Shown here piece by piece: positions 2,455-63,799 of a DNA stretch of 64,000 nucleotides. The stretch comes from an uncultured Campylobacterales bacterium (GTDB lineage: Bacteria; Campylobacterota; Campylobacteria; Campylobacterales; Sulfurimonadaceae): contig CAITKP010000063.1 of NCBI GenBank assembly GCA_903892995.1, forward strand, positions 68,719 to 132,718, in the 5' to 3' direction. The notes beneath the pieces are model-generated. The model made no database searches and had not been told where the DNA came from. It saw nothing but the letters and a program-made list of their open reading frames with translations. Made by a program: the position numbers and the translations under genes. Numbering within the stretch: position 1 is the first letter of the stretch; each line of letters opens with the position of its first letter.

Positions 2455-2488
2455 CCTTACATGTAAAGGCTCTTCCTTACATGTAAGG
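2455..2488. terminator. Tandem pair of the CTTACATGTAAG palindrome forming a bidirectional hairpin between convergent hpf and recG
   Basis: CCTTACATGTAAAGG-ctctt-CCTTACATGTAAGG. Because the unit is palindromic, the two copies are mutually complementary (stem of about 13 bp, short loop). A T-rich tract (ctttcttattc) follows. Confidence 0.6.
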
Positions 2489-2503
2489 CTTTCTTATTCA
2501 AAT

Positions 2504-4309
2504 CTAAATCCCCAAATCTCTCTTAACTTCTTGGACAATCTCTATATCTTCACTCAGATCGACCCATTTATATTCGCTTCCACTTTGATTGATCCCTTTT
2601 AAAAGATCACCGCTTTTACGAAATTTTAGATCAAGTTCTGCGATATCAAATCCACTTTTTGTTTTACAAAACTGATCTAATCGCTCTGATTTTTCTTGAT
2701 AGGTAAAAAGATGGCAATACCCTTTGAGTCCCGTTCTACTAACGCGTCCGCGAAGCTGATGCAGTGTTGAGAGACCGAGTCTCTCTGCTCCGACGATAAT
2801 GACACTTGAGAGTTTTGGCAAGGAGATACCAACCTCTACCACTGTTGTTGCGATGAGAATATCTCCCTTATCTCGAAAATCAAGTAGAACTTTCTCTTTT
2901 TCTTTATCTTTTCCATGCGTGACATAGACATTATCAAAGCGCTTTTCCCAAAAAGCTCTTGCCTCAGAGATGCTTTGATACAAAAATGCCTCACTCTCTT
3001 CAACAAGTGGATAGACTAAAAGCACTTGATGATCTTGTTTTATCTCATCTTTAATATGCTCTAGCAAAGAGGAAAAATCTTCTTTATGTATCACTTTTGT
3101 CGTGATATCTTTTATAAATGGAGTTGAAGTGATGAGACTCACATCGATGTGTGCTGTTTGTATCATCGCTTGAGTACGAGGAATGGGCGTTGCGCTAAAT
3201 TGTAAAAAATGCGCTCTTGTGTCGCTACTGCTTACAAGTTTGTCGAGCATATTTCTCTGTGCAGTTCCAAAACGGTGCTGTTCATCTATCATCACAAGTG
3301 TAACATCTGGAAGTTCTCTATATAAAAGTGCATGTGTACCGATGATAAAATCATACGCTTGTAAATCGATTTTTGCTGTTTTGTTTGTTACTAAAGCAGT
3401 TTTAACCGAGGGCAAATATTTTAAAGCCTCTTCATAAAGCTGATTTGCCAAAAGGGTTGTTGGTGCCATTAAAACAGCTCTATGTGGTCGAGCCATCATC
3501 ACAGAAGCGAGTATCACCATAGTCTTACCGCTGCCTACATCTCCAACAACAAGGCGTTTTGTTGCTCTCTCTTTGGCAAAATCGCTTTGTATATCCTTTA
3601 TCGCTGCTAGCTGTTCATTTGTCAGAGTAAAGGGCAAAGATTTACTCCATTCTTCATAAGTATTTGTAAGTTTTTCTTTGCATGGAAAATATCTTCTTTT
3701 TTGTGAGAGTTGGCGCATATTGTTATAGAGTTCTAGATATTTAAAGGTTTCAAGATACTGAGGCAAAAAACTTGTTTTAGGCTTGATAGCAATAGTTTCT
3801 TTTGGAAAATGAACTTCAAGAATCTTTTTGATGATCTTTTCATTTAATCCCTCTGATGCCAAGTTTTCATGTGTCAGATGTTTTTGCATCAAACGGCTCA
3901 TGGTGTCATTGCGAAGGGGAGTTTTATATTTTGGAGTGACACCTGCGATATTTGTCACTTTTTTTGGCTGAGAGATTGTGCAGTGTCCTCCACTGCAGTT
4001 GATCACTCCATAAAGATAGTATCTCTCACCAACAAGAAACTGCCGTTGCATATAGGGTTTTGGTTTAAAAAAAACAGCTTCAAGCGAATGAGAAAAGTTG
4101 TGTGAATAAAGATTTATTTTGATAGAAGAGGGCGTGCGCACTACTGAGTTTACTGTGACATCTACAAGCTGTGCAACGCCTACATGTAAGGTTCCATCCA
4201 AGAGAAGATTTTCATAATCATAGGGAATTAAAAGAGCTAAATCAAGATAAGAATTTACACCCAATCTTTTAAATCTAGCTTGATCCTCTTTTTCAAGTTG
4301 CATCATCAC
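2504..4309 (-). CDS. recG: ATP-dependent DNA helicase RecG
   Basis: 601 aa with Walker A GDVGSGKT, DEQH box (MIDEQHRFG), the helicase C-domain motif QLRGRVSR and a wedge-type N-domain. Confidence 0.9.
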   Translation of the reverse strand: MMMQLEKEDQARFKRLGVNSYLDLALLIPYDYENLLLDGTLHVGVAQLVDVTVNSVVRTPSSIKINLYSHNFSHSLEAVFFKPKPYMQRQFLVGERYYLYGVINCSGGHCTISQPKKVTNIAGVTPKYKTPLRNDTMSRLMQKHLTHENLASEGLNEKIIKKILEVHFPKETIAIKPKTSFLPQYLETFKYLELYNNMRQLSQKRRYFPCKEKLTNTYEEWSKSLPFTLTNEQLAAIKDIQSDFAKERATKRLVVGDVGSGKTMVILASVMMARPHRAVLMAPTTLLANQLYEEALKYLPSVKTALVTNKTAKIDLQAYDFIIGTHALLYRELPDVTLVMIDEQHRFGTAQRNMLDKLVSSSDTRAHFLQFSATPIPRTQAMIQTAHIDVSLITSTPFIKDITTKVIHKEDFSSLLEHIKDEIKQDHQVLLVYPLVEESEAFLYQSISEARAFWEKRFDNVYVTHGKDKEKEKVLLDFRDKGDILIATTVVEVGISLPKLSSVIIVGAERLGLSTLHQLRGRVSRTGLKGYCHLFTYQEKSERLDQFCKTKSGFDIAELDLKFRKSGDLLKGINQSGSEYKWVDLSEDIEIVQEVKRDLGI

Positions 4310-4373
4310 TCCTTCATCTCACAATGCTACTATGCGTTTGGAGAGATGAAGAGTTTTATTGCAAAATGCAATA

Positions 4374-5657
4374 TTATTTTGTAACGACCGCATAAGAAAG
4401 AGAGAGAATCTCTTTATGTTTTTTAATGTAGGTGTTAAGATCAGAGAGTTTTAGATTTTTTATAAGTTCAAGCTCTTTTTGAGAAGACCCAAGCTCTTCA
4501 CCTTTATAAAACTCCATAAATGTACGAGAAAGACGTTGTGAAAGAGTCTCTACACGAAGTGGCTCACTTCCTAATAGAAATTTTTTCGTTTGATCAAGCT
4601 CATCTTGAGTGACACCTTTGTGAACAAACTGCTCAAAAACAGTTTTTACAGTGCCTTTTGCATCATCCAAAGATTCTAGTTTTGTTTGCAGATATCCGCT
4701 CATGTAGGAGCTTGATTTGCCGATAGAAACTCTTGCATAAGCAGAGTAAGCAAGACCTTTTTTGACACGAACCTCTTCCATAAGTCTGCTTCCAAAACCA
4801 CCAGTTCCGAGGATATAAGTCGCAACTCTTGCTTTGTAGTTTTCTTTATCGTTTACATGTAAGTGATATGGCGATCCAAAATATAAGTACGCTTGTTGTG
4901 TTTCTCGTTTGATAATCTTTTCTTTTTTCAAAGCTGATGCTTCATAGTTTTTTATTGAAGCGCTCTTACCGATCTCTAGATTCAAAGCGAGCTCAACTGC
5001 TTTTTTCTTTGCTTCATCAAGGCTCAAATCCCCACCCATTACAATGATAAGATTTGAAAGAACAAGGTGCTGTTTTAAAAACTCTTCAACCTCTTTGAGT
5101 TTGATCTTTTTGACGCTCTCAACCGTTCCTAGATCTGGCAAAGCCAAAGGTGTGCCCTCAAACAACAAAGATTTCAAGTTGTTATCTGCCACATAATCAA
5201 AATCATTTTCTTTAGCGCTGAGTGTCCCGATAAGATCTGTTTTGACTTTATCGAGAGCTTTTTTTGTAATATTTGGTTCTTTTAAAAGTGAAGAAAAAAG
5301 TTTTGAACCCTCTTCAAACTGATCTTTTAAAGAGCCATACTCGATAACAAAAGTCTCAGTCCCAACTGAAGAGCTCAGTTGAATCGCTTTAGAATCTAGT
5401 GCCGTTGCAAAAGAGTTACTTCCAAGTGAGAGCGTTCCCTCGTTCATCATTTTTGAACTTAATTTTGCAAGACCTGCTGATTTTGGAGTATCGGTAATCG
5501 TTCCAGTACCTTTAAATACAAGTTGCATAGAAACGATAGGTAGTCGCTTTTCTTGTTCAAAAATAAGTGGGATTTTAACACCCTTAACCTCAATATAGTT
5601 CACTGTTGCTGCCATCATCACTTGTCCTAAAAAAAATAAAATCAATAAGTATTTCAT
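4374..5657 (-). CDS. M16 (pitrilysin/insulinase) family protein, apparently non-catalytic, secreted
   Basis: 427 aa with an N-terminal signal sequence and M16-like two-domain length and pattern. The position of the HxxEH zinc motif reads GLAKLSSKMMNEGT, with no His-x-x-Glu-His. Confidence 0.6.
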   Translation of the reverse strand: MKYLLILFFLGQVMMAATVNYIEVKGVKIPLIFEQEKRLPIVSMQLVFKGTGTITDTPKSAGLAKLSSKMMNEGTLSLGSNSFATALDSKAIQLSSSVGTETFVIEYGSLKDQFEEGSKLFSSLLKEPNITKKALDKVKTDLIGTLSAKENDFDYVADNNLKSLLFEGTPLALPDLGTVESVKKIKLKEVEEFLKQHLVLSNLIIVMGGDLSLDEAKKKAVELALNLEIGKSASIKNYEASALKKEKIIKRETQQAYLYFGSPYHLHVNDKENYKARVATYILGTGGFGSRLMEEVRVKKGLAYSAYARVSIGKSSSYMSGYLQTKLESLDDAKGTVKTVFEQFVHKGVTQDELDQTKKFLLGSEPLRVETLSQRLSRTFMEFYKGEELGSSQKELELIKNLKLSDLNTYIKKHKEILSLSYAVVTK

Positions 5658-6709
5658 TATGCAAAAATCTCCAATGTTTCATACGCAGTATTTCTAACCG
5701 CTGGAGTCTCGCCGATATCGCGGATCAGATTTATCATCTCATCTTTTGCCATTCTAAAGCCAGCACCCGCACTTTTGACGACATTCTCTTCCATCATCGT
5801 TGAGCCTAGATCATTCGCACCGAAGTTAAGTGCCATCTGACCGATATAAGGGCCTTGTGTAACCCATGAACTTTGGATATTTGGCACATTGTCCAAAAAG
5901 AGTCGTGCAACCGCCAAAAGACGCAGATAACGGTTTGGTGTTTGTTTTTCCATATCTGGAATCAAGCGTAAAAGTTCTGTGTTTTGCCCTTGAAAGCTCC
6001 ACATAATAAACGCACGAAAACCGCCCGTTTCATCTTGAAGATTTCGTACCATTTCGAAGTGATCTAAAATCTCTTCATCACTCTCAACGGTTCCATACAT
6101 CATCGTCGCTGTTGATTTGATACCGAGTTTATGCGCTTTTCTATGGATATCTACCCAAACTTCTGAGTCTATCTTTTTTGGTGCGATGATATCACGAACA
6201 CGGTCACTTAGTATCTCTGCTCCAGCTCCTGGAATGGAAGCTAGACCCTTTACATGTAAGCGCTCTAAAACCTCTTCAACACTGATACGAGAGACTTTAG
6301 CGATAAAATCGATCTCTATTGAAGAAAATCCATGGATAGTTATGGTTGGATATTTTGTGTGGATATGCTCGACTAAATCTTCATACCACTCGATCTTTAG
6401 TTTTGGATGCACTCCACCTTGAAAAAGTATCTGCGTTCCGCCGATGGAGAGAAGCTCATCGATCTTCGCATCTATCTCATCAAAGGTAAGCACATACGCA
6501 TCTTCATCTTTTTCATGGCGATAAAATGCGCAAAACTTACAATCAACCCAGCAGATATTTGTATAGTTGATATTTCTATCGATTACAAAGGTTGTGATGC
6601 CATCAGGATGCAGCTCTTTTTTACGAGCGGTAGCCATACGGCCAAGCTCTTTTAAATCGGCTTCGCGAATGAGTTTGAGTGCTTCCTCTTTTGTCAGTCT
6701 TTTAAACAT
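5657..6709 (-). CDS. Radical-SAM menaquinone (futalosine pathway) enzyme, MqnC/MqnE family
   Basis: DRNINYTNICWVDCKFCAFY carries the CxxxCxxC radical-SAM motif in the CofH/MqnC/MqnE context. The 350-aa length fits. I cannot separate MqnC from MqnE by eye. Confidence 0.75.
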   Translation of the reverse strand: MFKRLTKEEALKLIREADLKELGRMATARKKELHPDGITTFVIDRNINYTNICWVDCKFCAFYRHEKDEDAYVLTFDEIDAKIDELLSIGGTQILFQGGVHPKLKIEWYEDLVEHIHTKYPTITIHGFSSIEIDFIAKVSRISVEEVLERLHVKGLASIPGAGAEILSDRVRDIIAPKKIDSEVWVDIHRKAHKLGIKSTATMMYGTVESDEEILDHFEMVRNLQDETGGFRAFIMWSFQGQNTELLRLIPDMEKQTPNRYLRLLAVARLFLDNVPNIQSSWVTQGPYIGQMALNFGANDLGSTMMEENVVKSAGAGFRMAKDEMINLIRDIGETPAVRNTAYETLEIFA

Positions 6710-6711
6710 TT

Positions 6712-7583: not shown

Positions 7584-7592
7584 CTTTTCTCC

Positions 7593-8384: not shown

Positions 8385-8425
8385 CTGTTTGCCTTATAAA
8401 AAAGTAGGAGATTATAGCATAATGA

Positions 8426-8437
8426 CTTACATGTAAG
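8426..8437. repeat. Single CTTACATGTAAG palindrome in the EamA-kdsA spacer
   Basis: Exact 12-mer. On the minus strand it sits 9 bp upstream of a TATAAT (8411-8416) that precedes kdsA. Confidence 0.9.
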
Positions 8438-8442
8438 ATAAA

Positions 8443-9354
8443 TCATTTCTCTTTTGCCACCAAAATTCCAGCTGTAATAACCAAAATGATTCCCATTGTT
8501 GTAAGAAAACTAGGCAGTGAATCACCCAAAAAAAGCCCGATCAAAATTGAAAAAGGGATATTTGCATAACTCACAGCTCCGATGATTCCAGCTTTTGATG
8601 CTCCATAAGCTTTTGTCATAAACACCTGCGCTAAGGTTGCTAAAAGTCCCATAGCGAGAAGATAAATCCATACAACGCCATGTGGCATAACAAACTCACC
8701 TAACATAAAATCAAGCTCAGGAATGCTTACATGTAAGCTATTTGTGTAATAAGATATAAAGAGTAAAAGGAGTGGTCCAAATGTGCCGACACTCATAAAT
8801 GATAAAACAATCGCACGCGTATCATAATATTTTTTGAGTTCACGCACCGAGGTGTATGCAAGGGCAGCACCCACGCCGCTAAAGATTCCTAAAAGATCAT
8901 ATTTACTAAAAGAAAAACCGCTAGGTTGTGCGATAAAAACTATGCCAACAAAGCCCACAAAAACTGCGAGCCAACTTTTAAATGAGAGTTTTTCACTTAA
9001 AAATGCCCATGCAAAAAGTGCGGTAAATATAGGAGAAGTTTTAGAAAATGTCATCGCATCACCGAGTGAAATATGAGCGATATTATAAAAAAAAGCAAGC
9101 AGTGCGCTAAAACCCATAAAGCCACGAAAAAAAAGTAAAAAGGGTTTGCCGCCAACGCTTTTTAAAGGGGATTTTAAAACAGCAAAGCCGATGATAATCA
9201 CGCCAAAAACATTTCTAAAAAACACCACTTCAAGGGAGCTCATATACTCGCTTGAAAGCTTGGCAAATGCACCCATAACAGCAAATAAAAGGGAAGCAAA
9301 AAGCATATATTTTACGCCAGAATCAATCTTTATGTCTCGTTTCATGGAGCGCAT
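8443..9354 (-). CDS. EamA/DMT-family transporter
   Basis: 303 aa with about 10 predicted hydrophobic helices in two similar halves, typical of the EamA duplication. The start could also be ATG 9345. Confidence 0.75.
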   Translation of the reverse strand: MRSMKRDIKIDSGVKYMLFASLLFAVMGAFAKLSSEYMSSLEVVFFRNVFGVIIIGFAVLKSPLKSVGGKPFLLFFRGFMGFSALLAFFYNIAHISLGDAMTFSKTSPIFTALFAWAFLSEKLSFKSWLAVFVGFVGIVFIAQPSGFSFSKYDLLGIFSGVGAALAYTSVRELKKYYDTRAIVLSFMSVGTFGPLLLLFISYYTNSLHVSIPELDFMLGEFVMPHGVVWIYLLAMGLLATLAQVFMTKAYGASKAGIIGAVSYANIPFSILIGLFLGDSLPSFLTTMGIILVITAGILVAKEK

Positions 9355-9388
9355 TATAACTGTGTTAACTTCATTTGCCTATAATTGC

Positions 9389-9401
9389 CCTACATGTAAG
9401 C
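9389..9401. repeat. Near-consensus palindrome copy CCTACATGTAAGC in the divergent EamA / J-protein spacer
   Basis: Lies between a TATAAT (9380-9385) and the AAGGAG RBS (9409-9414) of the downstream J-domain gene. Confidence 0.85.
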
Positions 9402-10177: not shown

Positions 10178-10620
10178 GCCTTTTTAAAATCCCTTTCCCA
10201 AAAAAAATCTATCCAATCATTGGCTTCATTTATGGTGAAGTCTGGTTGGTGGAGGGATGTTTTTTTGTAAAAGAGTGTGGCTGTTTTAAACTCTGTATCT
10301 GGATTTTCAGCTTGAAGTTTATGCATGATCGCTTCAAGCGTTTCTCCGCTATCTGCAATATCATCAACGACTAAGACACGTTTTTTATCTGCTAAGTGAC
10401 ACTCTCCAAAGATGCAGATACTCTCTCTTTTTTTGTCATCGTCATAAAGTTCGCTGCGAACAGACTCGACCTCTCTAATATTTAAACCCTCAGCCATTGC
10501 ATGCGCTAAAGTAAGCCCTCCTCGCGCAACTGCAACAATCATTTCAGGATTAAAACCTCTTGCCATTTCAATAAGCTTACATGTATCGTTTTTAAAATTC
10601 TCATAGTTATAGTAAATCAT
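10174..10620 (-). CDS. Purine phosphoribosyltransferase (xanthine-guanine/hypoxanthine PRT-like)
   Basis: 148 aa with the PRPP-binding motif VLVVDDIADSGETL. Confidence 0.75.
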   Translation of the reverse strand: MIYYNYENFKNDTCKLIEMARGFNPEMIVAVARGGLTLAHAMAEGLNIREVESVRSELYDDDKKRESICIFGECHLADKKRVLVVDDIADSGETLEAIMHKLQAENPDTEFKTATLFYKKTSLHQPDFTINEANDWIDFFWERDFKKA

Positions 10621-13328: not shown

Positions 13329-13342
13329 CCTTACATGTAAAG
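13329..13342. repeat. Single palindrome copy CCTTACATGTAAAG 17 nt after the der stop
   Basis: Exact TTACATGTAA core in the der-AKR spacer. Confidence 0.9.
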
Positions 13343-13439: not shown

Positions 13440-14456
13440 ATGAACTTTAGATATATCGGTAAAACGGGGCTTCGCGTGAGTCCTATCTGTATGGGAACGA
13501 TGACGTTTGGATCACAGTGTGATGAAAAAGAAGCGTTTAAAATTATGGACAAAGCATACGATGCGGGAGTCAATTTTTTTGACACAGCAGAGCTTTATCC
13601 AGTTCCTCCTACAAAAGAGAGCAGCGGTCTCACAGAAGAGATGGTCGGAAGATGGCTGCGCACAAAACCTCGCGATAGTATCATACTCGCTAGCAAGGTT
13701 GCAGGTGCTGCAAATGGATGGTTTGTCCCGCCGATTCGCCATGGTTATACAGCAATTGACCGTTTTCATATAGAGCGTGCGATTGAGGGTTCTTTGAAGC
13801 GTTTAGGAACGGATTATATCGATTTGTATCAGATGCATTGGCCTGACAGTGTTGTGCCTATTGAGGAGTCGCTTCGTGCATTTGATGCTCTGGTACAAAG
13901 TGGAAAAGTACGCTACATCGGGACTTCCAACGATACAGCTTATGGTACATGTAAAGCTTTGATGAGTTCAAAATATGAAAAACTCACTCGCTTTGAATCG
14001 ATCCAAAATAACTTCTCCCTTTTAAACAGAAGATTTTTAGATGAGCTCTTTGTTTTAGCAAAAAATGAGCAGGTATCACTTCTTCCATATTCACCACTTG
14101 CAGGCGGAGTTTTAAGCGGAAAATACAATCAAGCACAAACAGGAGAAGGGAGATTTTTTGAGTATATTCACTCATCAAATGCACGTCAAAGAGTGATGGC
14201 TCAAAGATTTATGAATGACAAAACACTTCTCTCAACGCAAAAATATCTCAAAATCGCCCATGATGCAGGTCTGCATCCCGTTACAATGGCGATTGCTTGG
14301 TCAAAACAGTTTGACTTTGTGGCTTCGACGATTATTGGTGCTACAAAAGTAGAGCAGCTCGATGCTAGTTTGGCTGCAATGGATCTTGTTTTGAGCGATG
14401 AGGTGCTCAGTGCATGCGATAAAGTGCACAATGAAACTCTCTATCCAATGGGTTGA
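13440..14456 (+). CDS. Aldo/keto reductase family oxidoreductase
   Basis: 338 aa. GTMTFG, FFDTAELYP, DLYQMHWPD and IGTSN are typical AKR (Tas-like) motifs. Confidence 0.85.
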   Translation: MNFRYIGKTGLRVSPICMGTMTFGSQCDEKEAFKIMDKAYDAGVNFFDTAELYPVPPTKESSGLTEEMVGRWLRTKPRDSIILASKVAGAANGWFVPPIRHGYTAIDRFHIERAIEGSLKRLGTDYIDLYQMHWPDSVVPIEESLRAFDALVQSGKVRYIGTSNDTAYGTCKALMSSKYEKLTRFESIQNNFSLLNRRFLDELFVLAKNEQVSLLPYSPLAGGVLSGKYNQAQTGEGRFFEYIHSSNARQRVMAQRFMNDKTLLSTQKYLKIAHDAGLHPVTMAIAWSKQFDFVASTIIGATKVEQLDASLAAMDLVLSDEVLSACDKVHNETLYPMG

Positions 14457-15859: not shown

Positions 15860-17032
15860 ATGAAAAAAATTGCTTTGATATCATTGGCAACGGCGACGGT
15901 TTTGATGGCGGGGGGCTATAAAATACCTGAGAGTTCACTCAATGCAGTAGCACTTTCAAATGCGTATGTAGCTTCTTCTTATGGTGCAGATGCTTCGTAC
16001 TGCAATCCTGCAAATATGGTTTTTAGTGACAATAAAGGCGCAGCGATTGAAGTTGATTTGACTTATATTGGGCTCTCAAAGGTGGATTATAATCCTTCAA
16101 GTGGCAGTAACATTAGTTCAAAAGCGGAAAATTTTATCGTTCCAACAATCCATTATGTTTCTCCAGCGGTTGATAAATTTAGATTTGGTCTCTCTATTGT
16201 TTCTCCAGCGGGACTTTCTAAAAAATGGTCTGATGCGCCAGCTTCTTTGTACGCAAAAGAGTTTACGCTTCAAACAATCGAAGTAAATCCAACGGTTGCG
16301 TATGAGATAAACGATCAACTCGCAGTGGCTTTTGGTATAAGAGGAATAAAATCAAGTGGCGTTGTAAAAAATGCCTATTATGATTTAAAAGGGGATGGTT
16401 TTGACCTTGGTTATAACGCGGCACTTACTTATAAACCGACGAAAGATACAAATCTGGCACTGACATATAGATCAAATATTGATTTACATGTAAGCGGGGA
16501 CACCTCCCGTACTGTAACAACAATAAATAGCGGGGTCAAAGTAACTCTTCCTCTTCCAGCAACAGCAAACTTAGCTGTTTCACATACATATAACAATGCA
16601 ACAACAGTCGAGTTTGTGCTAGAGAGAACAATGTGGTCTGCATATAAAAATTTGAATTTTGATTTTAATAATGGAACAAACGAGACTGTTTTAGGTACAC
16701 CTTTAGCGAAAAACTGGAAAGATTCAAACGCATACCGTTTAGGACTCACACATAAACATGAAAAAATAACTGCAATGGTAGGTCTTGCATATGATGTTTC
16801 TCCAGTTCCTGATGCAACTATAGGATTTGAAAATCCAGATTCAAACTCAAAAGTGATCTCTCTTGGCGGACGTTATGAGATTAATGAAAAGATGAGTGTT
16901 GGTCTTGCTGGACTTGTGACATTGAAAGATGATAGATCCGTAAATAATATTGCCGATGGCGGACATGTTAATGGCGAATTTTCAAACTCCCCTGTTTACC
17001 TGCTTAGTGCGGGGATGGAATATAAATTTTAA
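15860..17032 (+). CDS. Outer-membrane long-chain fatty acid / hydrophobic compound transporter (FadL/OmpP1/TodX family)
   Basis: Signal peptide followed by GGYKIPESSLNAVALSNAY (FadL-type N-terminal hatch), alternating beta-strand pattern and a C-terminal ...YKF. Confidence 0.7.
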   Translation: MKKIALISLATATVLMAGGYKIPESSLNAVALSNAYVASSYGADASYCNPANMVFSDNKGAAIEVDLTYIGLSKVDYNPSSGSNISSKAENFIVPTIHYVSPAVDKFRFGLSIVSPAGLSKKWSDAPASLYAKEFTLQTIEVNPTVAYEINDQLAVAFGIRGIKSSGVVKNAYYDLKGDGFDLGYNAALTYKPTKDTNLALTYRSNIDLHVSGDTSRTVTTINSGVKVTLPLPATANLAVSHTYNNATTVEFVLERTMWSAYKNLNFDFNNGTNETVLGTPLAKNWKDSNAYRLGLTHKHEKITAMVGLAYDVSPVPDATIGFENPDSNSKVISLGGRYEINEKMSVGLAGLVTLKDDRSVNNIADGGHVNGEFSNSPVYLLSAGMEYKF

Positions 17033-18555
17033 TGGTGTTAGAGTATCCATATAACAATTTTTATGAGATGGCAACTGCAAACGCTGTTGCCAATCCAAAT
17101 AAAAAAGTAGTCTTTATCGACGATGAGAAGATCACCAACAGAGAGCTTCTTGAAAAGATCGATGCTTTTGCTCTTTATCTACAGCAGTGCGGATTTCATG
17201 AGAATGAAAAAGCAGCCTTAGTGTTACCAAACTCCTTAGAATTTTTAGTGGCTGTTTTTGCTGTTGGGAAACTTGGTGGAGTTGTTGTGCCTATCAACAA
17301 TATGCTCAAACGCGATGAGATAACTTATATTTTAAATGACTGCGATGCGAAGATTCTCATAACTGCCAATGAATTTGTCAAAGAAGTGAGTGATATTTCT
17401 ACAACAACGAAAGTCAAAGAAACTATTTGGATAGATAATTTAGAGGAATTAAAAACTCAAAACTCTTTACATGTAAGCAAAAATCTCGATGACTTAGCTG
17501 TGATATTGTATACCTCAGGAACCACAGGCCATCCAAAAGGTGCGATGCTGAGTTATCGTAATATTTTTTCAAATCTTGTTGGTGCGATGAAAATTTTTGA
17601 TATTACTAAAAAAGATAGATTTATCCTTTATCTTCCGATGTTTCATGCCTTTACATTTTCTATTATGATGATGCTTCCAATCTTTGCAGATGCTTCGATG
17701 GTTATCATCAAAAAACTTTTACCTTTTAGCAATATCATCAAGCAGACACTTCTCAAACGTGTGACAATCTTTTTGGGTGTGCCAGATATTTACAATGCAC
17801 TTATTCGTGCAAAATTGCCTTGGTACTTTTTATGGTTCAACTCTATTCGCGGATTTATTTCGGGAGCTTCTGCTTTGAGTGAAGATACACTCAACAGATA
17901 TACAAAAGTGTTTAAACGTGCAAAAATGCTTGAGGGTTATGGTCTGAGTGAGTGTTCTCCTGCGGTTTGTGTGAACTCTTTAGAGCACCAAAGAGCTTAC
18001 TCTGTTGGACGCGCGCTTCCAAGTTATGAGATCAAAATCGTCGATGAAGCAATGGTAGAAGTTCCCTTTGGCGAGGTAGGTGAGATCATTGTAAAAGGTG
18101 ATTGTGTGATGCAAGGATATTTGAACAATCCACAAGCAACAGCCCAAACTATCATCAATGCTTGGCTCAAAACGGGCGATCTTGGCAAGATGGATGAGGA
18201 TGGTTTTGTTTACATCGTCGATCGTATCAAAGATCTCATCATCTCAAAAGGGATCAATATCTATCCGCGCCAGATAGAAGAGGAGTTAATGAAACTTTCT
18301 TATGTTAAACTCTGCGCGGTAGTTTCCAAACCCGATATCCACAGCGGAGAGGTTCCCGTGGCTTTTATCGAACTTGAAGATGGCGCGGACAAAAAAGCGA
18401 TTACTCAGATGCAAGTCAAGAATGATCTCAAAGACACACTTGCAAACTTCAAGATACCAAAAGCGGTTCATTTTGTAGATGAACTACCAAAAACAGCGAC
18501 AGGAAAGCTACTCAAGCGCGTTTTAAAAGAGCGTATAAAACAGGGAGAATTTTGA
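17032..18555 (+). CDS. Long-chain fatty-acid--CoA ligase (AMP-binding enzyme family)
   Basis: YTSGTTGHPKG AMP-binding motif, GYGLSE, TGDLG and DRIKDLI. 507 aa. Its start overlaps the FadL stop (TAATG). Confidence 0.85.
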   Translation: MVLEYPYNNFYEMATANAVANPNKKVVFIDDEKITNRELLEKIDAFALYLQQCGFHENEKAALVLPNSLEFLVAVFAVGKLGGVVVPINNMLKRDEITYILNDCDAKILITANEFVKEVSDISTTTKVKETIWIDNLEELKTQNSLHVSKNLDDLAVILYTSGTTGHPKGAMLSYRNIFSNLVGAMKIFDITKKDRFILYLPMFHAFTFSIMMMLPIFADASMVIIKKLLPFSNIIKQTLLKRVTIFLGVPDIYNALIRAKLPWYFLWFNSIRGFISGASALSEDTLNRYTKVFKRAKMLEGYGLSECSPAVCVNSLEHQRAYSVGRALPSYEIKIVDEAMVEVPFGEVGEIIVKGDCVMQGYLNNPQATAQTIINAWLKTGDLGKMDEDGFVYIVDRIKDLIISKGINIYPRQIEEELMKLSYVKLCAVVSKPDIHSGEVPVAFIELEDGADKKAITQMQVKNDLKDTLANFKIPKAVHFVDELPKTATGKLLKRVLKERIKQGEF

Positions 18556-23643: not shown

Positions 23644-23652
23644 GAACATATT

Positions 23653-44342: not shown

Positions 44343-45373
44343 AATTTTGTATCACCGGAGGTGGCACAGGCGGGCATCTCTCTATTGCAGATGCACTCTG
44401 TAAAGCAGCAGTGAAACGTGGACATGAAGTTATCTTTATAGGTTCTATGAGTGGTCAAGATAGAATGTGGTTTGCGGATAATAGTAGTTTTACACAAAGC
44501 TACTTTTTAGAAACAACGGGCGTAGTGAACCAGAGGGGTTTGGGAAAATTAAAGGCACTCTATAAAATATATAAAGCGTTTAAAAGATCTATCGCTTTGC
44601 TTTATAAGCATGAAGTAGAGGCCGTTATCAGTGTTGGTGGATTCTCCGCAGCTCCTGCTTCATTTGCTGCAATTTTTGCTAAAAAACCTCTTTTTATCCA
44701 TGAGCAAAACGCTGTTATGGGGAAGCTAAACTCGATTCTCCGTCCTCGCGCAAAGCTCTTTATCTCTGCGTATGAAAAAGATGCGCCGCTCCAAGGTTAT
44801 CCTGTCAAAGAGGAGTTTTTTAAAGCTGCTCATGTACGAAAAAAGCTTGAAACGATTATCTTTTTGGGTGGTTCTCAAGGTGCAAAAGCGATTAATGATT
44901 TAGCCTTACATGTAAGCCCATTTTTACAAGAAAAAAATATCAAGATTATTCATCAATGTGGTGAACGTGATTATGAAAGAGTCAAAGCAGAATATGATAG
45001 ATTAGGCATTGAAGTAGAGCTTTACTCTTTTACAAAAGAGATCCCCTCACTCATAGCAAGAGCTGATCTGGCTGTGAGTCGTGCGGGTGCGAGTACGCTT
45101 TGGGAACTTTGTGCTTCTGGCGTGCCGACTTTTTTTGTGCCATATCCATATGCAGCAGGCGATCATCAGTTTTTTAATGCTCAGTTTATTGTTGATGAGG
45201 AGATGGGTTGGTGTCATAGAGAGGGCGATGGTCTTGATGAAAAATTGCTTGCGATTTTAGATGAAACCTTATACTCACAGGACACTTTACATGTAAGAAG
45301 CAAAAAACTTTTAGATCACTCGCATAAAGATGTCGCTTTGGAGATGATAAAGCTTTTTGAGCAAAATAGTTAA
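44339..45373 (+). CDS. murG: UDP-N-acetylglucosamine--N-acetylmuramyl-(pentapeptide) pyrophosphoryl-undecaprenol GlcNAc transferase
   Basis: GGGTGGHL N-terminal motif, GGSQGA, SRAGASTLWEL, and 344 aa. Confidence 0.9.
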   Translation: MKFCITGGGTGGHLSIADALCKAAVKRGHEVIFIGSMSGQDRMWFADNSSFTQSYFLETTGVVNQRGLGKLKALYKIYKAFKRSIALLYKHEVEAVISVGGFSAAPASFAAIFAKKPLFIHEQNAVMGKLNSILRPRAKLFISAYEKDAPLQGYPVKEEFFKAAHVRKKLETIIFLGGSQGAKAINDLALHVSPFLQEKNIKIIHQCGERDYERVKAEYDRLGIEVELYSFTKEIPSLIARADLAVSRAGASTLWELCASGVPTFFVPYPYAAGDHQFFNAQFIVDEEMGWCHREGDGLDEKLLAILDETLYSQDTLHVRSKKLLDHSHKDVALEMIKLFEQNS

Positions 45374-46006: not shown

Positions 46007-46510
46007 ATGTTGGAAGTTGGAACTTTAGCATCTGAATTTTGTCTGCCAAATCAAGATGATGTGGAGATATGTTTAAGAGATTTAAGAGGAAAATGGATCG
46101 TTTTATATTTTTATCCAAAAGACTCAACTCCAGGATGCACGACTGAAGCTTGTGATTTTACCGATGCTATTGTGGATTTTGCACAGCTTGATGCGATCAT
46201 TTTAGGTGTGAGCGCGGATTCAACGGCGAGCCATCAAAAGTTTATCGCAAAATATGATTTGGATATTACACTTTTGAGCGACGCAGATACAAAAATGATG
46301 CAAACTTATGGTGTTTGGCAGATGAAGAAAAACTATGGCAAAGAGTATATGGGGATAGTGCGTTCAACCTATATTATCTCACCTGATACAAAAATTGCCG
46401 CTGCATGGAGCAATGTAAAAGTAAGAGTTAAGCGTAAAAAAGATGGCGAGACGGTAGAAGCTTTACATGTAGATGAAGTCAAAGCGAAACTCCAAGAGTT
46501 GAGAGCTTAA
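46007..46510 (+). CDS. bcp: Thioredoxin-dependent peroxiredoxin Bcp
   Basis: VLYFYPKDSTPGCTTEAC carries the PxxxTxxC peroxidatic Cys motif with the resolving Cys five residues on. Confidence 0.9.
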   Translation: MLEVGTLASEFCLPNQDDVEICLRDLRGKWIVLYFYPKDSTPGCTTEACDFTDAIVDFAQLDAIILGVSADSTASHQKFIAKYDLDITLLSDADTKMMQTYGVWQMKKNYGKEYMGIVRSTYIISPDTKIAAAWSNVKVRVKRKKDGETVEALHVDEVKAKLQELRA

Positions 46511-46546: not shown

Positions 46547-46590
46547 CTTCGCATGTAAGCGATGAAAGCCTACATGCGAAGATGTTTTTA
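46547..46590. terminator. Bidirectional hairpin terminator between convergent bcp and the outer-membrane protein gene, built from two diverged palindrome copies
   Basis: CTTCGCATGTAAGC-gatgaaa-GCCTACATGCGAAG has 13 of 14 positions complementary and is followed by atgttttt. Confidence 0.7.
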
Positions 46591-50431: not shown

Positions 50432-51076
50432 ATGAATTTACTTAACGCAACCGCAATATCGCACTCTTTTGATTATGAACTTTTTTCAAATATATCCTTA
50501 CATGTAAGCGCTGGAGATACTATCGCAATTACAGGCGTGAGTGGCAGCGGAAAATCCACTTTTTTACATATTCTTTCAACACTTCTTGTACCAAAAGCTG
50601 GAAATGTAGAGATACTAGGTAAAGATTTAAAAGGCTTGAGTGAAAAAGAGCTTGTGCATTTAAGAAGTCATGAGCTTGGGATCATTTTTCAATCGCACTA
50701 TCTATTTCGTGGATTTAGTGCGATGGAGAACTTAGAAGTTGCTTCGATGTTGAGTCATGAAAAGATTGATGAAGCACTTTTACAAAGACTTGGAATTGCA
50801 CAGGTTATGCATCAAAAGGTAAGTGAACTCTCAGGCGGACAGCAACAAAGAGTTTCTATTGCGAGGGTTTTAACAAAGATTCCTCGCATTATTTTTGCAG
50901 ATGAGCCAACTGGAAATCTTGATAATAAAACAGCTTCAGAAGTGATGAACATCTTTAATGAATACATCGCTCAAAATAAAGCAGCACTTGTTCTTGTAAC
51001 CCATGATGAGAGCCTTGCACATAGATGTGATAAGATTTATCACTTAGAGAACAAAGAGCTCATTCAGGTTAAGTAA
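50432..51076 (+). CDS. ABC transporter ATP-binding protein (LolD/FtsE-like)
   Basis: Walker A GVSGSGKST, signature LSGGQQQRV and Walker B IIFADEPT. 214 aa. Confidence 0.85.
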   Translation: MNLLNATAISHSFDYELFSNISLHVSAGDTIAITGVSGSGKSTFLHILSTLLVPKAGNVEILGKDLKGLSEKELVHLRSHELGIIFQSHYLFRGFSAMENLEVASMLSHEKIDEALLQRLGIAQVMHQKVSELSGGQQQRVSIARVLTKIPRIIFADEPTGNLDNKTASEVMNIFNEYIAQNKAALVLVTHDESLAHRCDKIYHLENKELIQVK

Positions 51077-56520: not shown

Positions 56521-57204
56521 TCAATAGAGAGTTGGAATATCTTTATAGCGCTTTTTTGCCTCTTGTAGGTACTCTTTTGTGATCTGTATAAAGAGAGGTT
56601 TTTTATCTGCATCAAGCCAATTTAGAATTTTATTTAAATCTTCATAAGCCATAGAAGTGCATCCTGCTGTGGGATGGTTGAGCTCTTTTTGTACATGTAA
56701 GAAGATACATGAGCCTCTTTGTTTAATTTTTGAAGGATTATAAGCTATCACTATTCCTAAGCGGTATTGACTATCATCGCGGTGCATATACTCAAAGCTT
56801 TTGGGAATTATCTGCGGTATTTTTACAATGTTATTGTAAAGCGAAGAGTTGATATCATCGACACATATATCTTCCAAGCTACTTTTTAAATAGGGAAGAG
56901 AAAATTGATGATCCTCATATCCAAAACTTGAAATGAGAGGAAAAACTCCTGCAGGAGATTTTCCATCTCCCTCTTTTTTTATTGGTTGGGGAGTTACATG
57001 TAAGAATATATTATCTTCGCCATCCCATGCGAGACCATTTCTTCCAAGGTTGACATCAATATTGGAAAAAACTGCCCGTCCATCTTCTAAACAAAACATT
57101 TTTGCTTTTGTAGTATTGAAATCATCGCTCAGCACCAAAACAATCTGATTTGCGTATAAAAAACCCTCAGCAAAAGCGAATAAAATTAAGAAAACTTTTA
57201 TCAT
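56521..57204 (-). CDS. L,D-transpeptidase (YkuD) catalytic-domain protein, secreted
   Basis: Signal peptide, then GSCIFLHVQKELNHPTAGCTSM, which matches the His...Gly-Cys active-site arrangement of YkuD-fold enzymes. Confidence 0.6.
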   Translation of the reverse strand: MIKVFLILFAFAEGFLYANQIVLVLSDDFNTTKAKMFCLEDGRAVFSNIDVNLGRNGLAWDGEDNIFLHVTPQPIKKEGDGKSPAGVFPLISSFGYEDHQFSLPYLKSSLEDICVDDINSSLYNNIVKIPQIIPKSFEYMHRDDSQYRLGIVIAYNPSKIKQRGSCIFLHVQKELNHPTAGCTSMAYEDLNKILNWLDADKKPLFIQITKEYLQEAKKRYKDIPTLY

Positions 57205-58095: not shown

Positions 58096-58109
58096 GCTTA
58101 CATGTAAGC
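58096..58109. repeat. Full 14-bp palindrome GCTTACATGTAAGC in the long icd upstream region
   Basis: Exact 14-mer, about 170 bp upstream of the icd ATG. Confidence 0.9.
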
Positions 58110-60484: not shown

Positions 60485-60520
60485 TTTTTAATAGAATCAG
60501 CGCTTAAAACTCTTTTACTG

Positions 60521-60567
60521 CCTTACATGTAAGCCTTTATTCCTTACATGTAAGCAGTTCTTTTTTA
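60521..60567 (+). terminator. icd terminator built from a tandem pair of the palindrome
   Basis: CCTTACATGTAAGC-ctttatt-CCTTACATGTAAGC, with mutually complementary copies, followed by agttcTTTTTT. Confidence 0.7.
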
Positions 60568-60637: not shown

Positions 60638-60650
60638 CCCTACATGTAAA
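60638..60650. repeat. Near-consensus palindrome copy CCCTACATGTAAA upstream of the FIST gene
   Basis: Lies 27 nt upstream of ATG 60677, just before the ggtataAGGAG RBS region. Confidence 0.8.
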
Positions 60651-63160: not shown

Positions 63161-63173
63161 TGCCCAAAGACAC

Positions 63174-63199
63174 GTTACATGTAAGGCTTACATGTAAGC
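63174..63199. terminator. Abutting pair of palindromes between convergent histidine kinase and DedA genes
   Basis: GTTACATGTAAG directly followed by GCTTACATGTAAGC, with T-rich sequence on the + side (gtattttcttttc). Confidence 0.55.
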
Positions 63200-63210
63200 G
63201 TATTTTCTTT

Positions 63211-63777
63211 TCATTTTACTTTTTTCTTTGTTACCATCGACATATAAAACCATAACGCTGCTATAATCCCACCGATAATGATAATGGCAATATAGGGTTT
63301 TGCAATGACAAGATTGTAAAGCTTGACAATCGCTCCACCAAAATAAAAACTTCCAAATCCTACAACAGCCGTCCAAACAATACCCGAGAGAATGTTGAGA
63401 ATTGTAAACTTTTTGAGATCATATTTTGTCATCGCAATGGCGATTGGGATGAGTGTTTTGATCCCATAGATAAACTTTTGAATCAGTATAATCCAAGAGC
63501 CATATTTTTTCATCATAATATGTGCAAGTGCGAGTTTTCGGCGATGTTTCTTTAAGTAGCCATGCATCTCTGCTTTTTGGTTACGTGCAACATAAAAGAG
63601 AAGATTTTCTCCGATAACATTTGCAGAAAATGCGATAATCATAGAGGTTGCTAAATCCATTTTCCCCATATAAGAGAGCACGGCCGCTGCCATAAGTGCG
63701 ACAAATCCTCCACCAAGTGAGTATAAAAAAAGTCCTATATATCCGTAAGTTGTTATATTGCTTAACATATCTTCCAT
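63211..63777 (-). CDS. DedA-family membrane protein (second paralogue in window)
   Basis: 188 aa with GYIGLFLYSLGGGF... and KFIYGIKTLIPIAIAM (DedA-type re-entrant region) and 4-5 hydrophobic helices. Confidence 0.7.
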   Translation of the reverse strand: MEDMLSNITTYGYIGLFLYSLGGGFVALMAAAVLSYMGKMDLATSMIIAFSANVIGENLLFYVARNQKAEMHGYLKKHRRKLALAHIMMKKYGSWIILIQKFIYGIKTLIPIAIAMTKYDLKKFTILNILSGIVWTAVVGFGSFYFGGAIVKLYNLVIAKPYIAIIIIGGIIAALWFYMSMVTKKKVK

Positions 63778-63784
63778 CGTTTTT

Positions 63785-63799
63785 CCTTTACATGTAAGT
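63785..63799. repeat. Palindrome copy CCTTTACATGTAAGT upstream of the DedA gene and downstream of uvrB
   Basis: Exact TTACATGTAA core, immediately followed by the small hairpin TGCCC-ttt-GGGCA. Confidence 0.9.

Follow-up and report, generated by a model that had tools for sequence, protein, structure and literature searches.

The window analyzed here, 64,000 nucleotides from an uncultured member of the Sulfurimonadaceae (Campylobacterota), contains only housekeeping genes, and copies of one palindromic word, undescribed for this group in the literature as far as we found, are scattered across 61 kb of it (Table 1). The gene families implied by the names given in a first-pass annotation (a RecG-like helicase, nuoC, two nuoG-like genes, murG, and miaA) fit the Pfam annotation of identical contigs, but pflA was not confirmed, the gene being annotated as a DUF7494/TPR protein.

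Table 1. Positions and surroundings of word copies and copy pairs in the window
Feature	Position	Context
CTTACATGTAAA copy	2456..2467	intergenic; left arm, hairpin pair A
CTTACATGTAAG copy	2476..2487	intergenic; right arm, hairpin pair A
Hairpin pair A	2455..2488	between convergent 1900-2442(+) / 2504-4309(-); terminator-like
Copy	4179..4190	CDS 2504-4309(-), RecG-like helicase; frame L-H-V (TLHVGV)
Copy	4852..4863	CDS 4374-5657(-), peptidase M16; L-H-V
Copy	6249..6260	CDS 5657-6709(-), radical SAM; L-H-V
CTTACATGTAAG copy	8426..8437	intergenic, flanked by two (-) genes
Copy, full 14-mer GCTTACATGTAAGC	8726..8737	CDS 8443-9354(-), EamA; L-H-V
CCTACATGTAAG copy	9389..9400	divergent spacer 9355-9421, taking gene start as 9422
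Copy	10576..10587	CDS 10174-10620(-); T-C-K
Copy	13330..13341	intergenic; 19 nt past stop of der (11846-13312)
Copy	13944..13955	CDS 13440-14456(+); T-C-K
Copy	16483..16494	CDS 15860-17032(+), FadL-like; L-H-V
Copy	17466..17477	CDS 17032-18555(+); L-H-V
Copy	21816..21827	CDS 21370-22176(+), nuoC; L-H-V
Copy	24085..24096	CDS 23653-25686(+); T-C-I
Copy	27239..27250	CDS 25697-27952(+), nuoG-like 1; T-C-K
Copy	29976..29987	CDS 27945-30431(+), nuoG-like 2; T-C-K
Core copy	33112..33123	CDS 32939-34846(+), nuoL; V-H-V
TTACATGTAC copy	34563..34574	CDS 32939-34846(+); sole third-frame copy (Y-M-Y)
Copy	38034..38045	CDS 37936-40296(+), TPR/DUF7494; L-H-V
Copy	40805..40816	CDS 40309-41199(-), miaA; L-H-V
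Copy	41030..41041	CDS 40309-41199(-), miaA; L-H-V
Copy	42444..42455	CDS 42124-42645(+); L-H-V
Copy	44905..44916	murG (44339-45373); LALHVS
Copy	45286..45297	murG (44339-45373); TLHVRS; differs between relatives
Copy	46462..46473	CDS 46007-46510(+), AhpC/TSA; L-H-V
Degenerate pair CTTCGCATGTAAGCG...CCTACATGCGAAG	46547..46581	convergent-gene spacer; arms still complementary
Copy	50497..50508	CDS 50432-51076(+), ABC ATPase; L-H-V
Copy	56690..56701	CDS 56521-57204(-); L-H-V
Copy	56993..57004	CDS 56521-57204(-); L-H-V
Copy, full 14-mer GCTTACATGTAAGC	58097..58108	intergenic, upstream of icd
Hairpin pair B	60520..60557	copies 60522-60533 and 60543-60554; just past icd stop (58277-60484)
CCTACATGTAAA copy	60639..60650	intergenic; FIST gene 27 nt downstream
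Hairpin pair C	63173..63200	copies 63174-63185 and 63187-63198; between convergent 61805-63160(+) / 63211-63777(-)
Copy	63787..63798	intergenic; 10 nt upstream of VTT/DedA gene start

Abundance, shape, and placement of the word

The decamer TTACATGTAA occurs in 24 exact copies, all present where the first-pass annotation had placed them (with 1-nt offsets at 6250 and 17467), against ∼0.08 expected and a maximum of 2 in dinucleotide-preserving shuffles, in line with the large excess over chance claimed there. Its 8-mer core TACATGTA tops all 8-mers in the window, with 36 copies against expectations of 0.68 (order-3 Markov) and 2.6 (order-4). The 24 copies within coding sequences compare with 0.99 expected under codon-order shuffling and 2.97 (maximum, 10) in 500 synonymous-codon shuffles in which every protein was kept. 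The excess in the window, ∼50- to 300-fold at a spacing of ∼1 per 2 kb and a density of ∼560 per Mb, thus withstands the higher-order Markov and codon-aware nulls proposed for it.

The consensus is (C/G)CTTACATGTAAG(G/C), palindromic in both core and extension. There are 11 exact 12-mers and 17 with one mismatch; single mismatches fall at outer positions in all cases, and variants mismatched within the 8-mer core stay at background level. The symmetric flanks reported earlier hold as far as this consensus, but the extension is softer, with only 3 exact copies of the 14-mer GCTTACATGTAAGC, and the part of the motif that is firm is the 8-mer TACATGTA rather than the 14-mer. Six copies of the form [C/G]TACATGTAA are real (4180, 9390, 13945, 29977, 56691, and 60640), and five one-off variants, at 10577, 24086, 34564, 42445, and 46463, were likewise verified. 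The site at 33114 has an intact 8-mer core yet is two-off for the 10-mer, and 46551/46571 is a degenerate pair.

The share of copies within coding sequences, 24/36, bears out an earlier estimate of about two thirds. Intergenic DNA, ∼6% of the window, holds the other 12 copies (3.2 versus 0.40 per kb in genes), mostly at 3' ends, so that the word is ∼8 times denser in spacers and strongly enriched there, correcting an even-spread reading. Of the 12 intergenic copies in the window, 4 lie at convergent 3' ends and 2 in divergent spacers; in the clade relatives, convergent 3' ends hold 11 of 11.

Paired copies are predicted to fold into hairpins of −16.6 kcal/mol (pair A; z = −5.8), −18.6 kcal/mol (pair B; z = −4.6), and −13.1 kcal/mol (pair C; z = −2.65), and a T-run (TTCTTTTTT) follows pair B in the manner of an intrinsic terminator. 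The stretch around the degenerate pair (46505-46595) likewise gave a strong predicted hairpin (−28.7 kcal/mol), and the orthologous spacer carries intact pairs in three relatives (L004, L008, and L009). Across 80 independent metagenome loci, pairs preferred an 8-nt spacer, giving TTACATGTAAGGA-TTTT-TCCTTACATGTAA; most of the 31 pairs with this spacer have GATTTTTC, GAAAAATC (its reverse complement), or a near variant, and no conserved sequence was seen beyond the pair itself. One relative (L004) contained a five-copy array, at which the assembly broke.

Reading frames and the proteome

Two frames of the word are stop free, Leu-His-Val and Thr-Cys-Lys, and in genes the former is nearly always used; in the copy at 34563..34574, the last base is changed from A to C and a TAA stop is thereby avoided. 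Every one of the 17 LHV tripeptides uses the codons TTA-CAT-GTA, where codon usage predicts ∼0.8, and their number compares with 2.5 expected and with only 2 of the reverse tripeptide VHL. Considering this codon uniformity, the LHV excess, and the rarity of VHL, the pressure targets DNA rather than protein. At the same loci, LHV reaches 9.1 per 10,000 amino acids in word-bearing genomes and 0.4 to 0.6 in other Sulfurimonadaceae, being 15 to 20 times commoner than in relatives without the word, while enrichment of PHA and GMW is confined to genomes bearing CCACATGCC. For instance, in MurG the word puts H for S, Q, E, or N at a variable position: LALHVS (44905..44916) is retained in 6/6 clade relatives, and relatives without the word there have LALSVA, LALQTA, or LALEIA. 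The same kind of proteome effect has been reported for USS and DUS (PMC2817400).

Occurrence and dialects in relatives

Among six clade relatives, the exact 8-mer is retained at 24/43 orthologous sites, and more distant genomes have unrelated sequence at these sites wherever alignable. Unrelated metagenome loci yielded 160 more copies in 442 kb; the word is genome-wide in many organisms, with a spacing of ∼1 per 2 kb in many relatives too, and, as the genome-wide check proposed earlier had asked, not confined to this region. Lineage specificity was supported in part, since the fully syntenic Sulfurimonas genome CP147918 contains no copy, but the word was also found in cultured S. autotrophica, strains SWIR-19 and NW9, and in Sulfurospirillum sp. 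T05. The window clade, L035/L045, S. autotrophica, and Sulfurospirillaceae thus are separate branches that carry the word although close sisters lack it, a patchiness that can arise only if the specificity was transferred horizontally or lost many times.

Other relatives have different hyper-abundant words, TTCCACATGCC, CTACATGTAG, and AAACGCAGT, resembling DUS dialects as outlined in PMC3630211. Within one locus, nonpalindromic words are found in either orientation at about the same frequency, and TTCCACATGCC, which is of this kind, forms inverted pairs GGCATGTGGAA...TTCCACATGCC in spacers (−23.3 kcal/mol predicted for the one folded), matching the DUS/USS pairs known from terminators (PMC1852404). 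Decayed CCACATGCC copies were seen in L012, L013, and L015.

A candidate uptake word and its alternatives

Judged from sequence, the word carries all tested hallmarks of the self-DNA tags of a few naturally transformable bacteria (null models, lineage specificity, genome-wide occurrence, orthologous sites, proteome, hairpins, and dialects), consistent with the uptake-sequence or HIP-type class first suggested for it. We give roughly an even chance to the reading that (C/G)CTTACATGTAAG(G/C) is a lineage-specific DUS/USS/HIP1-type self-DNA word for transformation, spread by molecular drive. Competence, preferential uptake or recombination, the reader, and a role of methylation are steps that we infer. 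These Campylobacterales would take up DNA, like Campylobacter, Helicobacter, and Aliarcobacter, and an uptake or early-processing component would favor double-stranded DNA bearing the word. That the word is two-fold symmetric, with CATG at its center, hints at one of two things: a dimeric reader, or symmetric N6-methyladenine placed on CATG by an orphan methyltransferase. Possibly, the word is read via CATG methylation, by analogy with CtsM/RAATTY of C. jejuni, where the mark is required for uptake (PMC8468864, PMC10046745), and with methylated HIP1 of cyanobacteria, which raises transformation >100-fold (bioRxiv 10.1101/2024.09.10.611283). Both S. denitrificans and Sulfurospirillum barnesii have active N6-adenine methyltransferases for CATG, for which no restriction enzyme is listed (PMC4752239 supplements); AAACGCAGT lacks CATG, so a methyl-CATG mechanism would be unable to cover every dialect. 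Word-bearing fragments would then recombine more often, and copies arising by point mutation would spread and stay where tolerated, namely, in spacers, paired terminator hairpins, and the stop-free Leu-His-Val and Thr-Cys-Lys frames, while drift or exchange of reader specificity would give rise to the sister-lineage dialects.

Some observations sit less easily with an uptake word. The all-or-none 8-mer core looks more like the site of a sharply specific enzyme than a graded uptake preference, and the stereotyped pair spacer could mean that pairs spread as units. The patchy recurrence of the word among branches, and the 6 copies in 14.5 kb of one temperate-phage contig (L097), also speak against this reading. 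A crude screen of the window and ∼600 kb of word-bearing DNA returned no competence gene, pilin, or methyltransferase, which is weak evidence of absence given its crudeness, and no natural transformation or uptake data for Sulfurimonas or Sulfurospirillum were found in the literature.

An unlikely alternative, though one to be taken seriously, is a HIP-type palindrome linked to an orphan methyltransferase with no uptake role, whose methylated sites would serve chromosome maintenance (such as repair strand discrimination, replication, or nucleoid organization), with methylation-directed biased repair making and keeping copies, as in Elhai's model for HIP1. This would suit the palindromic core and extension, the CATG methyltransferases active in related genera, and a conservation at orthologous sites exceeding codon and amino-acid constraint. 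Moreover, single-base deviations lie only at the outermost positions, as in HIP1, and both the density and the observed/expected ratio (53 to 300) fall within the HIP1 range of 300 to 2700 per Mb and 55 to 228 (PMC4390886). However, the nonpalindromic 9- to 11-mers of sister lineages behave alike, which a symmetric type II methylase site fails to explain, and no methyltransferase is tied to the word. Elhai's model also needs MutS1/MutL mismatch repair, which is generally held to be absent from Campylobacterota. Since HIP1 is now being linked to transformation, this explanation partly merges with the uptake reading.

We consider it very unlikely that a functionless mutational or repair bias is at work, in which a sequence-specific enzyme (very-short-patch-type repair, a nickase, or a restriction-modification remnant) turns near-matches into the word on any replicating DNA. 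A 50- to 300-fold excess with rewritten amino acids is far above known repair effects, such as that on CCWGG in E. coli, copies decay in relatives (e.g., to TGCATGTA), and neither 3'-end enrichment nor stereotyped hairpin pairs are predicted, even though the sharp core, which no cloud of decayed forms surrounds in the window, the host-like density in a temperate-phage contig (L097; 6 copies per 14.5 kb), and a patchy tree distribution, as a mobile enzyme gene would give, all fit.

It is highly improbable that the word is the site of an abundant dimeric DNA-binding protein, nucleoid associated or a global regulator, selected site by site. Dimeric helix-turn-helix proteins typically bind 10- to 14-bp palindromes, TTACATGTAA-type palindromes form clustered, operator-like arrays in phage contigs, and intergenic enrichment is as expected, but two thirds of the copies lie in genes, intergenic ones stand chiefly at convergent 3' ends rather than promoters, and relatives with the same gene order have no word or quite a different one, which fits poorly with a regulon or architecture that is conserved.

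Least probable of all is a REP/MITE-like hairpin element, a ∼32-nt pair spreading as a mobile or terminator module with in-gene copies as by-products: the uniform 8-nt-spacer pairs, the array in L004, and the predicted hairpin stability agree with it, but 24/36 copies are single, in frame, and in conserved housekeeping genes, having originated by substitution rather than insertion, REP elements are restricted to intergenic DNA, neither a RAYT nor an IS200-like gene turned up, and conservation stops at the pair. The exclusion of a REP/MITE element, a protein-domain repeat, and an IS end in the first-pass annotation is supported, about two thirds of the copies lying in unrelated housekeeping genes.

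Abundance and form of the palindrome in the window

The window, with a base composition of 37.4% G+C over 64 kb, contained 36 copies of the palindromic 8-mer TACATGTA, which was its most frequent 8-mer and was expected 0.68 times under an order-3 Markov model; this corresponds to a density of 0.56 per kb, or ~560 per Mb. The first-pass annotation had reported 24 exact copies of the decamer TTACATGTAA in large excess, and all of them were recovered where it had placed them, with 0.08 copies expected from dinucleotide-preserving shuffles of the window, so that the excess is real. Observed/expected ratios were 53 for the 8-mer (order-3 Markov) and ~300 for the 10-mer, and copies were dispersed across the entire window, the widest gap being 6.2 kb. 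The symmetry had also been said to continue into the flanks; it does reach (C/G)CTTACATGTAAG(G/C), but as a soft preference rather than a strict one. At the 12-mer level, 11 copies were exact and 17 had one mismatch, which in all 17 lay at an outer position (1, 2, 11, or 12), and variants with a single mismatch inside the core occurred in the window at background frequency only. The firm unit of the word is the 8-mer TACATGTA.

Two thirds of the copies had been assigned to genes, which agrees with our count of 24 of 36 within coding sequence and 12 in intergenic spacers. Since the spacers account for ~6% of the window DNA, the word is ~8 times denser there (3.2 per kb) than in genes (0.40 per kb). 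The 24 coding copies compare with 0.99 expected when codon order was shuffled within genes and 2.97 when synonymous codons were shuffled with the proteins kept; the excess in the window thus survived both the Markov and the codon-shuffled nulls, the comparisons that the first-pass annotation had proposed. The decamer carries a TAA stop in one of its frames. Among the in-gene copies, 18 encoded x-His-Val (17 of these Leu-His-Val [LHV]) and 5 encoded Thr-Cys-x, and the only copy in the third frame had lost its final A. All 17 LHV tripeptides were written TTA-CAT-GTA, for which codon usage predicts ~0.8, and LHV itself was 6.7 times more frequent than the 2.5 expected from amino-acid composition; the reverse-order control, Val-His-Leu, occurred twice, without enrichment. 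In orthologous murG neighborhoods, LHV reached 9.1 per 10,000 residues where the genome bears the word and 0.4 to 0.6 where it does not. The first site in MurG reads LALHVS in the word-bearing clade and LALSVA, LALQTA, LALEIA, or LALNVA in more distant homologues, where the word is not encodable. The pressure is on DNA, not on protein. Whatever its function, the word measurably alters the proteome, with LHV enriched 15- to 20-fold. Uptake sequences and proteomes coevolve in Haemophilus and Neisseria (PMC2817400), and the proteome effect observed here is stronger than in that case.

Three spacers of the window each held two copies, 13 to 21 nt apart, and these pairs at gene 3' ends form predicted terminator-type hairpins (see the table of features). 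Isolated intergenic copies were also considered as structured RNAs, and this was rejected because their folds were without significance.

Separately, CATG was depleted in the window (196 observed versus ~280 expected), its ratio dropping to ~0.57 without the 36 motif copies, and ACATGT apart from the word occurred seven times, close to expectation.

Coordinates of features in the window (window positions) and in loci of relatives, metagenomes, or phages fetched for comparison (L-numbers)
Feature	Location	Observation
Pair A	2455-2488	Between convergent genes; predicted fold -16.6 kcal/mol
Pair B	60520-60557	Directly after the icd stop, followed by TTCTTTTTT; predicted fold -18.6 kcal/mol
Pair C	63173-63200	Between convergent genes; predicted fold -13.1 kcal/mol
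Fourth convergent spacer	46547-46581	Degenerate pair, arms still complementary; pairs intact in the orthologous spacer of relatives
nuo operon	23419-30431	Includes a small gene of NADH-UOR_E type and two successive NuoG-like genes (751 and 828 aa); in a further product, of 677 aa, NuoF-like 4Fe-4S and pyridine-nucleotide oxidoreductase domains are joined
Strain difference past the window end, 3' of the MCP gene	L001:17640-19719	Extra 590-aa HD-GGDEF gene on one metagenome contig (ERZ1426855), missing from L001
Word array	L004:11590-11790	Five copies parted by T-runs in one convergent spacer; interrupted by ~100 N, the repeat seemingly having broken the assembly
Inverted pair of a sister word	L010:15311-15340	GGCATGTGGAA...TTCCACATGCC between genes
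Second palindrome TATCGATA	L005-L008, around 5865-8716	In one sub-clade, 2 to 6 per locus, at orthologous positions shared among its members; two in the window, counts too small to judge
DbpA helicase	L253:13114-14460	Sulfurospirillum sp. T05; all named nearest homologues are Sulfurimonas (~61-63% identity), nearer matches being three metagenome proteins (73-98%)
CRISPR array	L013:30-3100	Sulfurimonas sp. SO_2017_GW1_186 (JBAZSX010000002.1), ~7 kb from murG; ~46 repeats CTTGAACCGACACATGTGATGTATTTAAAC of 30 nt, period 65-66 bp
Clustered longer palindromes, phages	L109:7577-11553; L120:603-2841; L096:358-538	ATCTTACATGTAAGAT and CACTTTACATGTAAAGT, on the same core

Distribution among relatives and sister words

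The relatives compared were 80 murG loci from 80 species, with a neighbor-joining tree of MurG serving as a rough guide whose deep branches are not trusted. In the six closest species (MurG identity, 74 to 82%), the word occurred at 2 to 7 per 10 kb, and the exact 8-mer was kept at 24 of 43 orthologous sites; many of the remaining sites were one base off, and more distant genomes, where alignable at those sites, had unrelated sequence. Sulfurimonas sp. CP147918, nearest among the named complete genomes, carries these genes in identical order, with zero copies and zero overrepresented 8-mers. The same word nevertheless recurred in Sulfurimonas and Sulfurospirillaceae (see the table of carriers), with the flanks CTTTACATGTAAAG in L251 to L253. 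Moreover, a scan of metagenomes for paired copies matched at least 120 stretches, and the 80 loci taken among the matches listed (442 kb; G+C, 25 to 52%) held 160 further copies, or 3.6 per 10 kb, with the seeding pairs left out. The motif is not confined to this region; such confinement is what the first-pass annotation had named as decisive against its claim. Pairs in these 80 loci favored a spacer of 8 nt that mostly reads GATTTTTC or its complement, and the resulting hairpin is TTACATGTAAGGA-TTTT-TCCTTACATGTAA. An assembly or adapter artifact was rejected, since copies lie in frame within conserved genes and the word recurs in independent ENA, JGI, and NCBI assemblies as well as in isolate genomes.

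Carriers of the word and of sister words
Word	Carrier	Locus	Count
TACATGTA	Sulfurimonas MAG (separate MurG branch)	L035	11 in 21 kb
TACATGTA	Sulfurimonas MAG (sister of L035)	L045	7 in 12.4 kb
TACATGTA	S. autotrophica DSM 16294	L254	11 in 21 kb
TACATGTA	Sulfurimonas sp. SWIR-19	L256	10 in 21 kb
TACATGTA	Sulfurimonas sp. NW9	L257	9 in 21 kb
TACATGTA	Sulfurospirillum sp. T05	L253	16 in 23 kb
TACATGTA	Sulfurospirillaceae MAG	L252	10 in 16 kb
TACATGTA	2.75-Mb ENA contig	L251	16 in 23 kb
TTCCACATGCC		L010, L011, L031, L014, L080, L054, L052, L034	e.g., 22 vs 0.5 expected in 21 kb
AAACGCAGT		L029, L033, L046, L063, L076	e.g., 13 vs 1.0 expected
CTACATGTAG	L255 also given as Ca. S. baltica	L038, L083, L255	L038: CTACATGT 12 vs 0.55 expected

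An unbiased 8-mer scan across the murG loci revealed that related lineages carry different hyper-abundant words, or dialects, and that many scanned species have no such word. CATG lies within every dialect except AAACGCAGT. The palindrome itself has no orientation, and the non-palindromic dialect words occurred in near-equal orientations in each locus, with forward/reverse counts of 9/12, 11/8, and 7/7 for CACATGCC and of 5/8 and 4/8 for AAACGCAG; they were also denser in spacers than in genes. An oriented word of the Chi or KOPS type was rejected on the grounds that the word is palindromic and that, within a locus, neither orientation prevails among its non-palindromic sisters; CRISPR is likewise excluded as an account of the word. 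In addition, TTCCACATGCC forms inverted pairs between genes, one of which had a predicted fold of -23.3 kcal/mol, and its tripeptides, PHA and GMW, were enriched solely in genomes carrying TTCCACATGCC. In L012, L013, and L015, copies had decayed, suggesting that the pressure was lost there.

With regard to the DbpA gene of strain T05, zero Sulfurospirillum proteins were found among the best 120 matches, so either this strain has been misplaced or other Sulfurospirillum lack the gene.

Likeness to known words and possible function

The first-pass annotation classed the motif as a candidate uptake-sequence or HIP-type word, and, as judged from sequence, it carries the signature of the former and matches the latter in several respects. 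The DUS of Neisseriaceae (ATGCCGTCTGAA and dialects) and the USS of Pasteurellaceae (AAGTGCGGT / ACAAGCGGT) resemble it in size and density (9 to 12 bp, roughly 0.5 to 1 per kb), in their presence in genes and spacers with enrichment in the latter, in gene-end pairs that form terminator hairpins, in lineage-specific dialects, and in a frame bias with enriched encoded tripeptides and substitution-born copies at tolerated protein positions; the sister words here share with them the lack of orientation bias in non-palindromic forms. Unlike DUS and USS, the word is a perfect palindrome centered on CATG, so that a hairpin is built from two direct rather than two inverted copies, and its core is all-or-none. 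Preferential uptake and a dedicated receptor (a ComP-type minor pilin) mark that class, of which the word is a candidate member by sequence, and the phylum and its known uptake machineries differ. That of Helicobacter is ComB. In C. jejuni, of the same phylum as the word, a palindromic signal, RAATTY, is read in uptake, and we know of no description of RAATTY as a hyper-abundant word. Campylobacter employs the Cts type II/type IV-pilus-like system, and C. jejuni tells DNA apart by a methyl mark on that palindrome set by CtsM (PMC10046745), by analogy a plausible recognition route for a CATG-centered palindrome.

HIP1 (GCGATCGC) has been reported as a palindromic octamer at 300 to 2,700 per Mb with observed/expected ratios of 55 to 228 (PMC4390886), and the word, at ~560 per Mb and ratios of 53 to ~300, qualifies on this scale. 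Both are hyper-abundant palindromic octamers with palindromic extensions and comparable density and ratio, one-base deviations gather at outer positions, coding and non-coding DNA are both occupied, sites are conserved more than codons and amino acids require, an alternative word takes over in some related genomes, and a common methylase site is nested within (CATG here; GATC and CGATCG in HIP1). They differ in sequence (TACATGTA versus GCGATCGC), in host (Campylobacterota versus cyanobacteria), and in composition (AT-rich versus GC-rich), and sister dialects here are partly non-palindromic; strong 3'-end and terminator pairing is likewise a feature of the present word that the HIP1 accounts consulted do not describe. 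For HIP1, a kb-scale periodicity has been reported. [quoted passage not shown] The Neisseria NTS/dRS3 repeat, which is cut by the single-strand nuclease Ssn, is also abundant and hairpin-forming and modulates transformation, but it is ~30 nt long, oriented, and tied to ssnA, with ~2% of its copies inside genes versus two thirds here; no GIY-YIG gene was seen here.

Two active N6-adenine methylases of CATG, M.SdeAIII and M.Sba3II, are recorded without a restriction enzyme in S. denitrificans (CP000153) and Sulfurospirillum barnesii (CP003333), respectively, both grouped with the non-carriers. Together with the DUS/USS signature, the HIP1 matches, and the methyl mark of C. jejuni, they lead us to favor, at about even odds, a transformation-linked self-recognition word that would be spread by molecular drive and possibly read through methylated CATG. 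What was shown is the behavior of the sequence; competence, an uptake bias, a reader, and any role of methylation are inferred. Several points count against this reading. The literature searched held no data on competence in Sulfurimonas or Sulfurospirillum, and a pattern screen over ~600 kb of DNA bearing the word, too crude to establish absence, yielded no prepilin, its sole match to a DNA methyltransferase (L205) being a K+ channel. The all-or-none core, the patchy distribution of the same word, the stereotyped pair spacer, and the six copies on one temperate phage contig weigh in the same direction. A methylation-linked maintenance function without uptake is the foremost alternative, though an unlikely one. 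That a mutational or repair bias alone produced the word seems quite improbable, and a binding site of an abundant DNA-binding protein slightly more so. The least probable is a REP-like hairpin element, since REP/BIME or MITE elements are intergenic only, are inserted as units, and are linked to a RAYT or transposase, whereas 24 of the 36 copies here are in frame inside genes and were made by substitution, in keeping with their exclusion in the first-pass annotation.

As far as we know, only two bacterial families have yielded demonstrated uptake-signal sequences. Tentatively, with a chance somewhat short of even, Campylobacterales (Sulfurimonadaceae and Sulfurospirillaceae) may possess unrecognized, independently evolved uptake or transformation signals in several interchangeable dialects. 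These would be mostly CATG-centered (TTACATGTAA, CTACATGTAG, and TTCCACATGCC), plus AAACGCAGT, and perhaps read as methylated CATG within an extended context. Such a system, if real, would join the uptake sequences of Neisseria and Pasteurellaceae, the C. jejuni methyl mark, and cyanobacterial HIP1. It would add a third, phylogenetically distant group with palindromic and non-palindromic dialects, the word occurring in some close, syntenic relatives and not in others, so that the origin, switching, and decay of such words could be compared, as could their possible part as gene-flow barriers among abundant environmental sulfur oxidizers. The word, perhaps with CATG methylation, might then aid Sulfurimonas and Sulfurospirillum genetics when placed in constructs; whatever its function, it could be used as a marker in taxonomy or in the binning of metagenomes. 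The word adds to the known class of hyper-abundant uptake-signal/HIP-type words in a new phylum, with several dialects and cultured carriers, those with complete genomes being S. autotrophica DSM 16294 (CP002205), Sulfurimonas sp. SWIR-19 and NW9, and Sulfurospirillum sp. T05 (JAFHKK01). The first-pass annotation did not recognize the motif as a described one; likewise, nothing relevant came from searching full texts for the words, for uptake sequences in Campylobacterota or Sulfurimonas, or for competence in these taxa, and the word is undescribed as far as these searches reached.

Gene content, other palindromes, and phage contigs

The gene content of the window is housekeeping throughout, comprising hpf, a RecG-like helicase, nusB, ribH, kdsA, der, the nuo operon, miaA, ftsW, murG, rpsB, tsf, fliR, gmk, argS, flagellin, icd, and others. 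When scanned, the window yielded no Rfam match and no tRNA. Its MurG shares 74 to 84% identity with proteins from uncultured Sulfurimonadaceae and no more than 68% with those from named Sulfurimonas, and its proteins recur unaltered on contigs of several ENA metagenomes, e.g., a 384-kb scaffold. A second super-abundant palindrome suspected in L013 (CACATGTG, 46 copies) was rejected, as it belongs to the CRISPR array.

A viral scan for paired copies matched 47 contigs. Most matches had other flanks (ATTACATGTAAT and ATCTTACATGTAAGAT) in clustered, operator-like arrays and were set aside as unrelated to the host phenomenon; the arrays in L109, L120, and L096 look like operators or promoters. A possible exception was one 14.5-kb contig of 35% G+C (L097; IMGVR_UViG_3300026382_000037), which held six dispersed copies of TACATGTA versus ~0.15 expected. 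Its PHROGs (integrase, Sak annealing protein, and tail fiber J) identify a temperate phage, perhaps the prophage of a host that has the word, and its copies bear on whether mobile DNA takes on the word.
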